DNA of 64,000 bases, taken from contig OX597838.1 of the NCBI GenBank assembly GCA_951406725.2, forward strand, positions 36,828,001-36,892,000. The letters run 5' to 3'. Positions within the stretch are counted from its first letter, which is position 1. The number at the start of each line of letters is the position of its first letter. The notes under the pieces were generated by a model. That model saw nothing but the letters and a program-made list of their open reading frames with translations. It had not been told where the DNA came from and made no database searches. Made by a program: the position numbers and the translations under genes. Below are positions 54,879 to 55,213 of the stretch, piece by piece. This stretch comes from Octopus vulgaris (Eukaryota).

Positions 54879-55099
54879 ATAAATTAAAAGAGGGAGAGAA
54901 TAAAATCAACAAAATTAGTTAATTCTGTATCCTCTATTTTCATGCTTTTCTTATTTTTTCTTCTAATTTCTTAAACAAGACTTTTTACTCTACTTGTCTA
55001 CTTAAGAATTTTAATAATCTATCAGTAAGAAATAATATTTGTTTAATTGCTTCTCTTTAATTACAATTAGCTACATTTCTAATTATATAACTGTTGAAT

Positions 55100-55129
55100 A
55101 TTTTTCTCCCTTCTCTTTCGCAGGTGAGT
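55100..55129 (+). other. Candidate recursive splice site (ratchet point)
   Basis: TTTTTCTCCCTTCTCTTTCGCAG|GTGAGT in unique AT-rich sequence. Confidence 0.55.
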
Positions 55130-55213
55130 TTCTTTGGTTTATTTTGCAAAGAATAGAGAATCAGAATTGGAAAGCTCTGCGTGTGAGTCTTTTTTTATAT
55201 TTGTTGGTGTTGT

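Follow-up and report, generated by a model that had tools for sequence, protein, structure and literature searches.

The closest described counterparts of the octopus site analysed here are the ratchet points of Drosophila (Ubx-RP, kuz RP1 and RP2, Bx, luna). In the portions of the papers drawn on here (10.1101/006163; PMC8605326), these are fused sense-strand sites in long introns with a strong pyrimidine tract. A second donor follows about 50-60 nt on and bounds an out-of-frame or stop-bearing cryptic exon, and several sites can be present in one intron; the octopus locus resembles the fly sites in each of these respects. Recursive sites were reported in 6% of long fly introns (10.1101/006163), and the fly ratchet sites are described in the cited accounts as having only the core in common.

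According to the competition model, as outlined in the cited parts of PMC8605326 and PMC6224609, the cryptic RS-exon is skipped when the recursive donor is the stronger one. The vertebrate cryptic RS-exons, e.g. that of CADM2 (Sibley et al. 2015, via the passages cited from PMC6224609), resemble the octopus case in their very long host introns and in a strong recursive donor which is expected to win. At the motif level, an enrichment of RP-sites was described for insects and sea urchin by Shepard et al. 2009 (PMC2773006), whose 13 species, as given in the part cited, include no mollusc.

The analysed window, i.e. the whole stretch of 64,000 nt, originates from the Octopus vulgaris genome of 2.8 Gb. 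The fused site at window position 55123|55124 is probably a recursive splice site (ratchet point) with a cryptic RS-exon of 59 nt, as judged from its sequence, its host gene and its two relatives in the same intron.

Results

Architecture of the fused splice site

The elements of the site are the following (window positions):
55120..55129, plus strand: fused acceptor/donor GCAG|GTGAGT, junction 55123|55124 (genome position 36883123), candidate ratchet point
55101..55119, plus strand: polypyrimidine tract of 19 nt, within an AG-free zone of about 50 nt
55088-55091, plus strand: TAAC, proposed earlier as the branch motif
55079..55083, plus strand: CTAAT, the closest YTRAY branch-point candidate, with its A at -42 (a guess)
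55183..55188, plus strand: second donor GTGAGT, at +59
55124..55182, plus strand: predicted cryptic RS-exon of 59 nt (in silico)

An earlier sequence-only reading of the window had reported the unbroken 19-nt pyrimidine tract, the GCAG|GTGAGT junction and the second GTGAGT bounding a 59-nt cryptic exon, and all of these were verified at the positions listed. The proposed ratchet-point/RS-exon anatomy was likewise recovered: a strong acceptor is fused to a consensus donor and a second donor is located within about 100 nt. The TAAC motif is present, but as a branch motif it fits YTRAY poorly, with 6/49 in the motif class (see below) against 11/33 in the controls.

On the plus strand of the window, AGGTGAGT occurred once. 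AGGTRAG was detected at 14 sites on both strands, and more than 11 pyrimidines in the upstream 20 nt were present only at this one. The composite pattern Y15-N-CAG|GTRAGT had one match in the window and none in 100 dinucleotide shuffles, and its chance expectation from the genome-wide null was about 2-4 x 10^-4 per window. The acceptor at 55123 scored 12.5, the highest of the six plus-strand composite sites in 1.53 Mb; all splice scores were obtained with matrices set by hand from the general metazoan consensus. The fused motif at 55123|55124 is real and not a product of chance.

The base at 55119 (position -5) is C in the assembly versus T in both of two DNA runs from one study, and the T restores TT at -6/-5. 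The same TT is carried by two paralogous modules, described below, where the assembly copy has TC. In the cited fly data TT is found at these positions in 196 of 197 sites; the octopus agrees with the fly in the two paralogues and in both DNA runs and deviates from it by the C at -5 of the assembly. The assembly C, which is off the acceptor consensus, could be explained by a private allele or by an error. The two runs retain both donors and differ at only 2-3 of 336 nt, which is too close to test conservation. Contigs from two presumed RNA runs gave no match at 54890-55215, a result that counts in neither direction.

The host gene and its giant intron

The window had been proposed to lie within a giant plus-strand intron, and this is supported by a public gene model together with protein homology. 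The gene and its parts are located as follows (G000:C25, all on the plus strand):
G000:C25:35789609-37317627: SRRM3/4-like gene, spanning at least 1.53 Mb
35789896: first half of cwf21 (the domain is above the Pfam cut-off)
36065940: second half of cwf21
36736527-694: exon C, from splice-signal prediction and O. sinensis XP_036369324.1
G000:C25:36736695-37035542: intron C-D, 298,848 nt, phase 2, containing the entire window (1..64000)
G000:C25:36828001-36892000: the window
37035543-611: exon D, from splice-signal prediction and O. sinensis XP_036369324.1
37317492: SRRM_C (eMIC), above the Pfam cut-off, the sole match in the genome

Exon prediction from splice signals alone over 464 kb resulted in four strong candidates. 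Two of these, exons C and D, are consecutive in the O. sinensis gene model XP_036369324.1, and one exon flanking the window intron matched public Octopus sinensis and O. vulgaris proteins at 100%. Exons A-E form one open frame, collinear with Srrm234 of Haliotis (abalone) and Dreissena (mussel) and with a paralogue on contig C27. The introns between them are 276 kb (A-B), 670 kb (B-C), 299 kb (C-D) and 183 kb (D-E) long, and the alignment to the mollusc Srrm234 proteins leaves no space between C and D where a coding exon could fit. In all 16 bins, T exceeded A on the plus strand.

By homology, the host is an SRRM3/4-like gene, with cwf21 and SRRM_C/eMIC, which resembles the neuronal micro-exon master regulator. 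Its likeness to the Srrm234 and SRRM3/4 genes, as described in the cited part of PMC8797185, consists in the presence of both domains and in collinearity with the mollusc Srrm234. The gene order and the Haliotis and Dreissena proteins, which hold both parts, suggest that exon E is joined to the SRRM_C exon.

This giant gene is represented only in pieces in the public models. The O. sinensis model opens with an unrelated-looking segment of intron A-B (L046:1456-1653, G000:C25:35826553-35826687) in place of exon A. The O. vulgaris prediction P0002 consists of exon C and a short upstream piece only and ends one residue past exon C, an ending which fits intron read-through and splicing to a module equally well and decides nothing. 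A search with P0001 yielded no relative of greater length.

Pfam searches with 150 open frames from the 464 kb (146 of the 327 best-scoring and four exon candidates) resulted only in transposon domains or sub-threshold matches. Decayed transposon frames are located in the window at 7413-8404, 42652-43206, 52914-53234, 39916-40320, 56517-57053 and 62923-63390. By appearance they are Tc1/mariner-like and non-LTR retroelement pieces, with one HTH match, and they sit among SINE-like repeats and microsatellites.

The genome contains two Srrm234-type genes, the diverged, intron-rich and eMIC-bearing giant on C25 and a conserved SRRM2-like gene on C27. This differs from the non-vertebrate scheme in the cited part of PMC8797185, where the eMIC is restricted via 3' end processing of a single Srrm234 gene. 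The first 312 codons of the C27 copy (L052:1306-2241, G000:C27) are without intron, resembling a retrocopy, and no SRRM_C match was found in it. The pair parallels vertebrate SRRM2 versus SRRM3/4. The two-gene arrangement of octopus may already be known.

Three paralogous modules in intron C-D

Sequences homologous to the 55123 site were located at two other positions of the same intron, outside the window:
Junction at G000:C25:36821628, plus strand: module copy 1
Window 55041..55189, junction at 36883123, plus strand: module copy 2
Junction at G000:C25:36963518, plus strand: module copy 3

The site had been placed in a unique island among repeats. It is single-copy in a DNA search of the genome; however, two diverged paralogues lie 61.5 kb upstream and 80.4 kb downstream. 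The homology of the three modules extends from about -80 to +60 (about 130 nt), with 77% identity over 57 nt and 71% over 101 nt in blastn (E 5.5e-6 within 464 kb). A shared 21-letter pattern matched only at the three modules genome-wide. With the splice consensus left out, the module pairs scored 68, 72 and 58. Of the 1176 pairings of other class sites none exceeded 62, and the highest-scoring of these pairings were of low complexity. No further copy was found by the genome-wide pattern search or by a profile in 1.53 Mb, and none of 13 weak Rfam matches overlapped the modules.

The acceptor-donor core is intact in all three copies, whereas the remainder diverges by 23-29%. The second donor is GTGAGT in copy 1 (+55) and in copy 2 (+59); in copy 3 it has decayed to GTGATG (+55). 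The cryptic exon bodies (+7..+36) shared 21/30 and 17/30 ungapped identities, compared with a null mean of 8.7. The three octopus sites are homologous over a stretch that includes the cryptic exon, while the cryptic exon content of the fly is poorly conserved according to the cited part of PMC8605326. In-silico translation resulted in an immediate stop with any of the modules spliced in after exon C; intron C-D being in phase 2, the donor hexamer itself gives the in-frame stop on inclusion.

The modules split intron C-D into 84.9, 61.5, 80.4 and 72.0 kb, and the probability of a spacing this even for three random points is 0.0055. These pieces (61-85 kb in a 299-kb intron) differ from those given in the cited fly data, which range from 2.6 to 63.6 kb with a mean of 18 kb in introns of up to 133 kb.

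Comparison of the segments of intron C-D revealed nothing in common beyond the modules, except one transposon-like pair. No trace of a large tandem duplication was detected: of four collinear candidates, three were dispersed repeats (10, 28 and 946 matches in 1.53 Mb), and the fourth had four matches in mixed orientation. Either the module alone was copied, or selection retained the module while its flanks turned over. Most likely, the three copies arose by local duplication of a single ancestral module, as we infer from their homology.

Other composite sites in the gene

Over the 464 kb, only four composite sites (acceptor >= 6, donor >= 2) were detected, all on the plus strand and all in intron C-D. 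Over 1.53 Mb, five strong sites were located on the plus strand versus one on the minus strand, and intron C-D had four versus none. Within the gene alone this strand bias is not significant (5:1, p 0.11; 4:0, p 0.06), and a looser threshold resulted in six plus versus three minus sites. The sites other than the modules are:
G000:C25:36213733 and 36422770 (L115, L093), plus strand, intron B-C: strong acceptor|GTGAGT sites
G000:C25:36348157, 36439181 and 36455701 (L101, L092, L090), minus strand, intron B-C: composite sites within 108 kb
Window 21510..21539, plus strand, intron C-D: weaker, doubtful composite site GTAG|GTATGT, junction 21533|21534

The two plus-strand sites leave pieces of 148, 209 and 314 kb in intron B-C, and their homology to the three modules is not clear (profile E 0.16). 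All five strong plus-strand sites of the gene have GTGAGT, although GTAAGT is commoner genome-wide. No composite site was found in introns A-B (276 kb) and D-E (183 kb) or in the 314-kb stretch of intron B-C; the two introns without sites indicate that length does not force recursion in this gene. Among the three minus-strand sites, one is a strict class match and one has a strong donor 81 nt on. The trio may mark a nested antisense transcription unit.

The site at 21533 had been named as the partner of the 55123 site in stepwise removal. The pairing was not supported: the donor is GTATGT, the second donor is only weak and there is no homology to the three modules. The GTATGT class had no visible excess either (16 GTATGT versus 18 GTGTGT among 55 matches). 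Judging from homology, the true partners of the 55123 site are the two paralogous modules outside the window. In the stretch 21510-21557, the AG at 21533 is preceded by a TGC (about 16 nt upstream) and by TTGAC at -23, and a weak donor follows it after 18 nt; when read by hand, these 18 nt keep the frame and are free of stops in phase 2. The UGC motif is a mark of eMIC-type microexons. On these grounds the 21533 site could, as a weak suggestion, be an eMIC-type microexon within the eMIC gene itself.

Genome-wide enrichment of the composite motif

Throughout the genome, Y15NCAG|GTRAGT had 75 matches versus 4 for the reversed pattern. Since real acceptors inflate this contrast, controls altered in a single donor base were used. 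With +5 not G (three letters), 74 matches versus 37 reversed were counted (odds ratio 9.4, p 2e-6), and with +4 not A, 55 versus 23 (odds ratio 7.8, p 4e-5). Base composition predicts about 16 matches compared with the 75 observed. The composite motif is 5-9-fold enriched genome-wide, with an excess of about 60 sites when a single strict pattern is applied. The GTAAGT form (55 of 75) is 5.7-fold and the GTGAGT form (20 versus 6.6 expected) 3-fold enriched; on the motif alone, about a third of the GTGAGT-type sites are background. The excess resembles the motif-level excess of fused sites in invertebrate genomes in Shepard et al. 2009, but was determined with single-base controls and not, as in the cited part of PMC2773006, from sense and antisense counts in annotated introns. 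In human, about 10 cryptic RS-exon sites are given in the cited part of PMC6224609, in comparison with the about 60 excess motif sites of octopus.

Adjacent matches within 300 kb formed six pairs versus 0.6 expected, all six on the same strand, and within 1 Mb eight of ten pairs were on the same strand (p 0.055). The same-strand strict pairs, which mark candidate recursively spliced introns, are (G000):
C6:97.12/97.26 Mb
C8:15.10/15.24 Mb
C13:4.55/4.81 Mb
C21:39.82/39.87 Mb
C23:40.19/40.45 Mb
C24:46.63/46.66 Mb

The surroundings of the motif were compared in 49 of the 74 other matches (all 19 GTGAGT and the first 30 of 55 GTAAGT sites) and in 33 of 74 controls (from the first 43 listed, minus 10 with CT-repeat or C-rich tracts). 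In the first test (6-nt score, +35..+80), a second donor was present in 14/49 sites versus 3/33 controls (p 0.05). With a 9-nt score and +20..+90, both picked post hoc after the histogram had been seen, the values were 22/49 and 3/33 (p 0.0005). The excess persisted at four thresholds, and three more distant downstream windows had 5, 3 and 5 of 49. TT at -6/-5 was found in 42/49 versus 20/33 (p 0.017). Upstream of the class sites the sequence is A+T-rich and not exon-like (G+C 0.26-0.27 in the 60 nt preceding the tract).

The YTRAY branch motifs did not separate the class from the controls (20/49 and 15/33), nor did the AG-free length (medians 53 and 42, p 0.21). An upstream CYTTAATT tied to AG|GTRAG was rejected as a class feature (309 versus 589 reversed). 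The composite motif class shows signs of selection in the octopus genome.

Discussion

In the proposed course of splicing, the tract of pyrimidines and the AG would act together with the downstream donor to define a short cryptic exon. Exon C would then be spliced onto the acceptor of this exon. Since exon C ends in CAG, its junction with the site again reads as a consensus donor. The rebuilt donor scored 8.8, the original donor of exon C 7.1 and the cryptic donor at 55183 3.6 (scores from the hand-set matrices, not an assay). The rebuilt donor would outcompete the other two, splicing would restart, and zero nucleotides would be left in the mRNA. Should the cryptic donor prevail, a stop would arise at the phase-2 junction and the RNA would probably be degraded. 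From the sequence we infer that the modules would be used in splicing, together with the order of the steps and the competition between the donors. The three modules are predicted to allow, and likely do allow, the removal of intron C-D in four steps of 61-85 kb.

The first of these steps would be the same if the modules were mainly regulated cassette exons, entered at 55124 and left at 55183, whose inclusion stops the mRNA and limits eMIC in some cells. The two readings differ in which donor wins. A poison function would agree with the immediate stop in each of the three modules and with the exon body and second donor kept between copies, unlike the fly cryptic exon content in the cited part of PMC8605326; it is the conserved exon body that keeps this reading alive. 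The GTGAGT of all five strong plus-strand sites, against 55 GTAAGT to 20 GTGAGT in the class, and the 3' end poison exon that limits the fly Srrm234 in the cited part of PMC8797185 point in the same direction. However, the rebuilt donor exceeds the cryptic donors of the modules by far (8.8 versus 3.6, 3.1 and <=1.0, hand-set matrices), and copy 3 no longer has an intact second donor. Poison exons would need neither a perfect donor at the first base nor even spacing, and the UGC motif is absent near the three acceptors. Regulated poison exons are the main alternative to recursive splicing, though a rather unlikely one.

It is more doubtful that the modules are non-functional relics, i.e. decayed copies of an old duplicated exon or transposon piece which carry an acceptor and GTGAGT by chance and are never spliced. 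About a third of the GTGAGT-type matches are background, a divergence of 25-30% could arise without selection if about 150 nt alone were copied, and three copies do not equal three independent events. The relic reading is opposed by the core, intact in all three copies while the rest differs by 23-29%, and by the sense orientation and even spacing of all copies. Moreover, neither the genome-wide pattern nor the 1.53-Mb profile revealed an extra copy, no Rfam family is present at the modules, and intron B-C contains two unrelated plus-strand sites of like form.

An ordinary donor at 55124 is very improbable. The site would then be the 3' end of an internal first exon, used from an alternative promoter to make an eMIC protein with a shortened N-terminus, or else the 3' end of a non-coding exon that by chance ends in pyrimidines. 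CAG|GTGAGT is by itself already a strong donor, and the AG at 55069-55070 could begin a 53-nt exon ending at 55123, but this AG is missing in the other two copies. The A+T-rich upstream sequence of the class is not exon-like, and TT at -6/-5 and the downstream second donor mark an acceptor.

That the site is simply the acceptor of a 59-nt protein-coding exon can, for this gene, practically be dismissed: one frame is open across the 59 nt and across the 55 nt of copy 1, but it requires a phase-1 intron, whereas intron C-D in phase 2 leads to an immediate stop (so that any leak would be a poison event), the copy lengths of 55, 59 and 55 nt break the frame, and the homologous proteins have no insertion here and Pfam no match.

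Returning to recursive splicing as the preferred reading, a broader scenario is offered as a speculation with little weight. In octopus, duplication of Srrm234 would have produced two genes, a compact one of the SRRM2-like type and an eMIC-only one of 1.5 Mb, and in the latter one module would have been tripled into tunable poison-exon switches. Each module would normally be removed to zero length, and the exon body would let a trans factor flip it to a poison exon. Recursive splicing would thereby set the dose of the neural microexon regulator.

A literature search, which covered few subscription journals, found no paper on recursive splicing in octopus, cephalopods or molluscs. Among the matches listed, duplicated ratchet points were absent by title or abstract opening, and recursive splicing of SRRM4 by title. 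As far as searched, the novelty lies in the phylum, in the size of the segments and in the triplication of the module; the mechanism is already known from flies and vertebrates.

If the proposed reading is true, recursive splicing reaches the molluscs, with a defined gene and three junctions. Ratchet points could then multiply when a small module is duplicated, and this has a bearing on how they originate in growing introns. Recursion leaking into poison-exon inclusion could, in that case, tune the neural splicing programme of the octopus.
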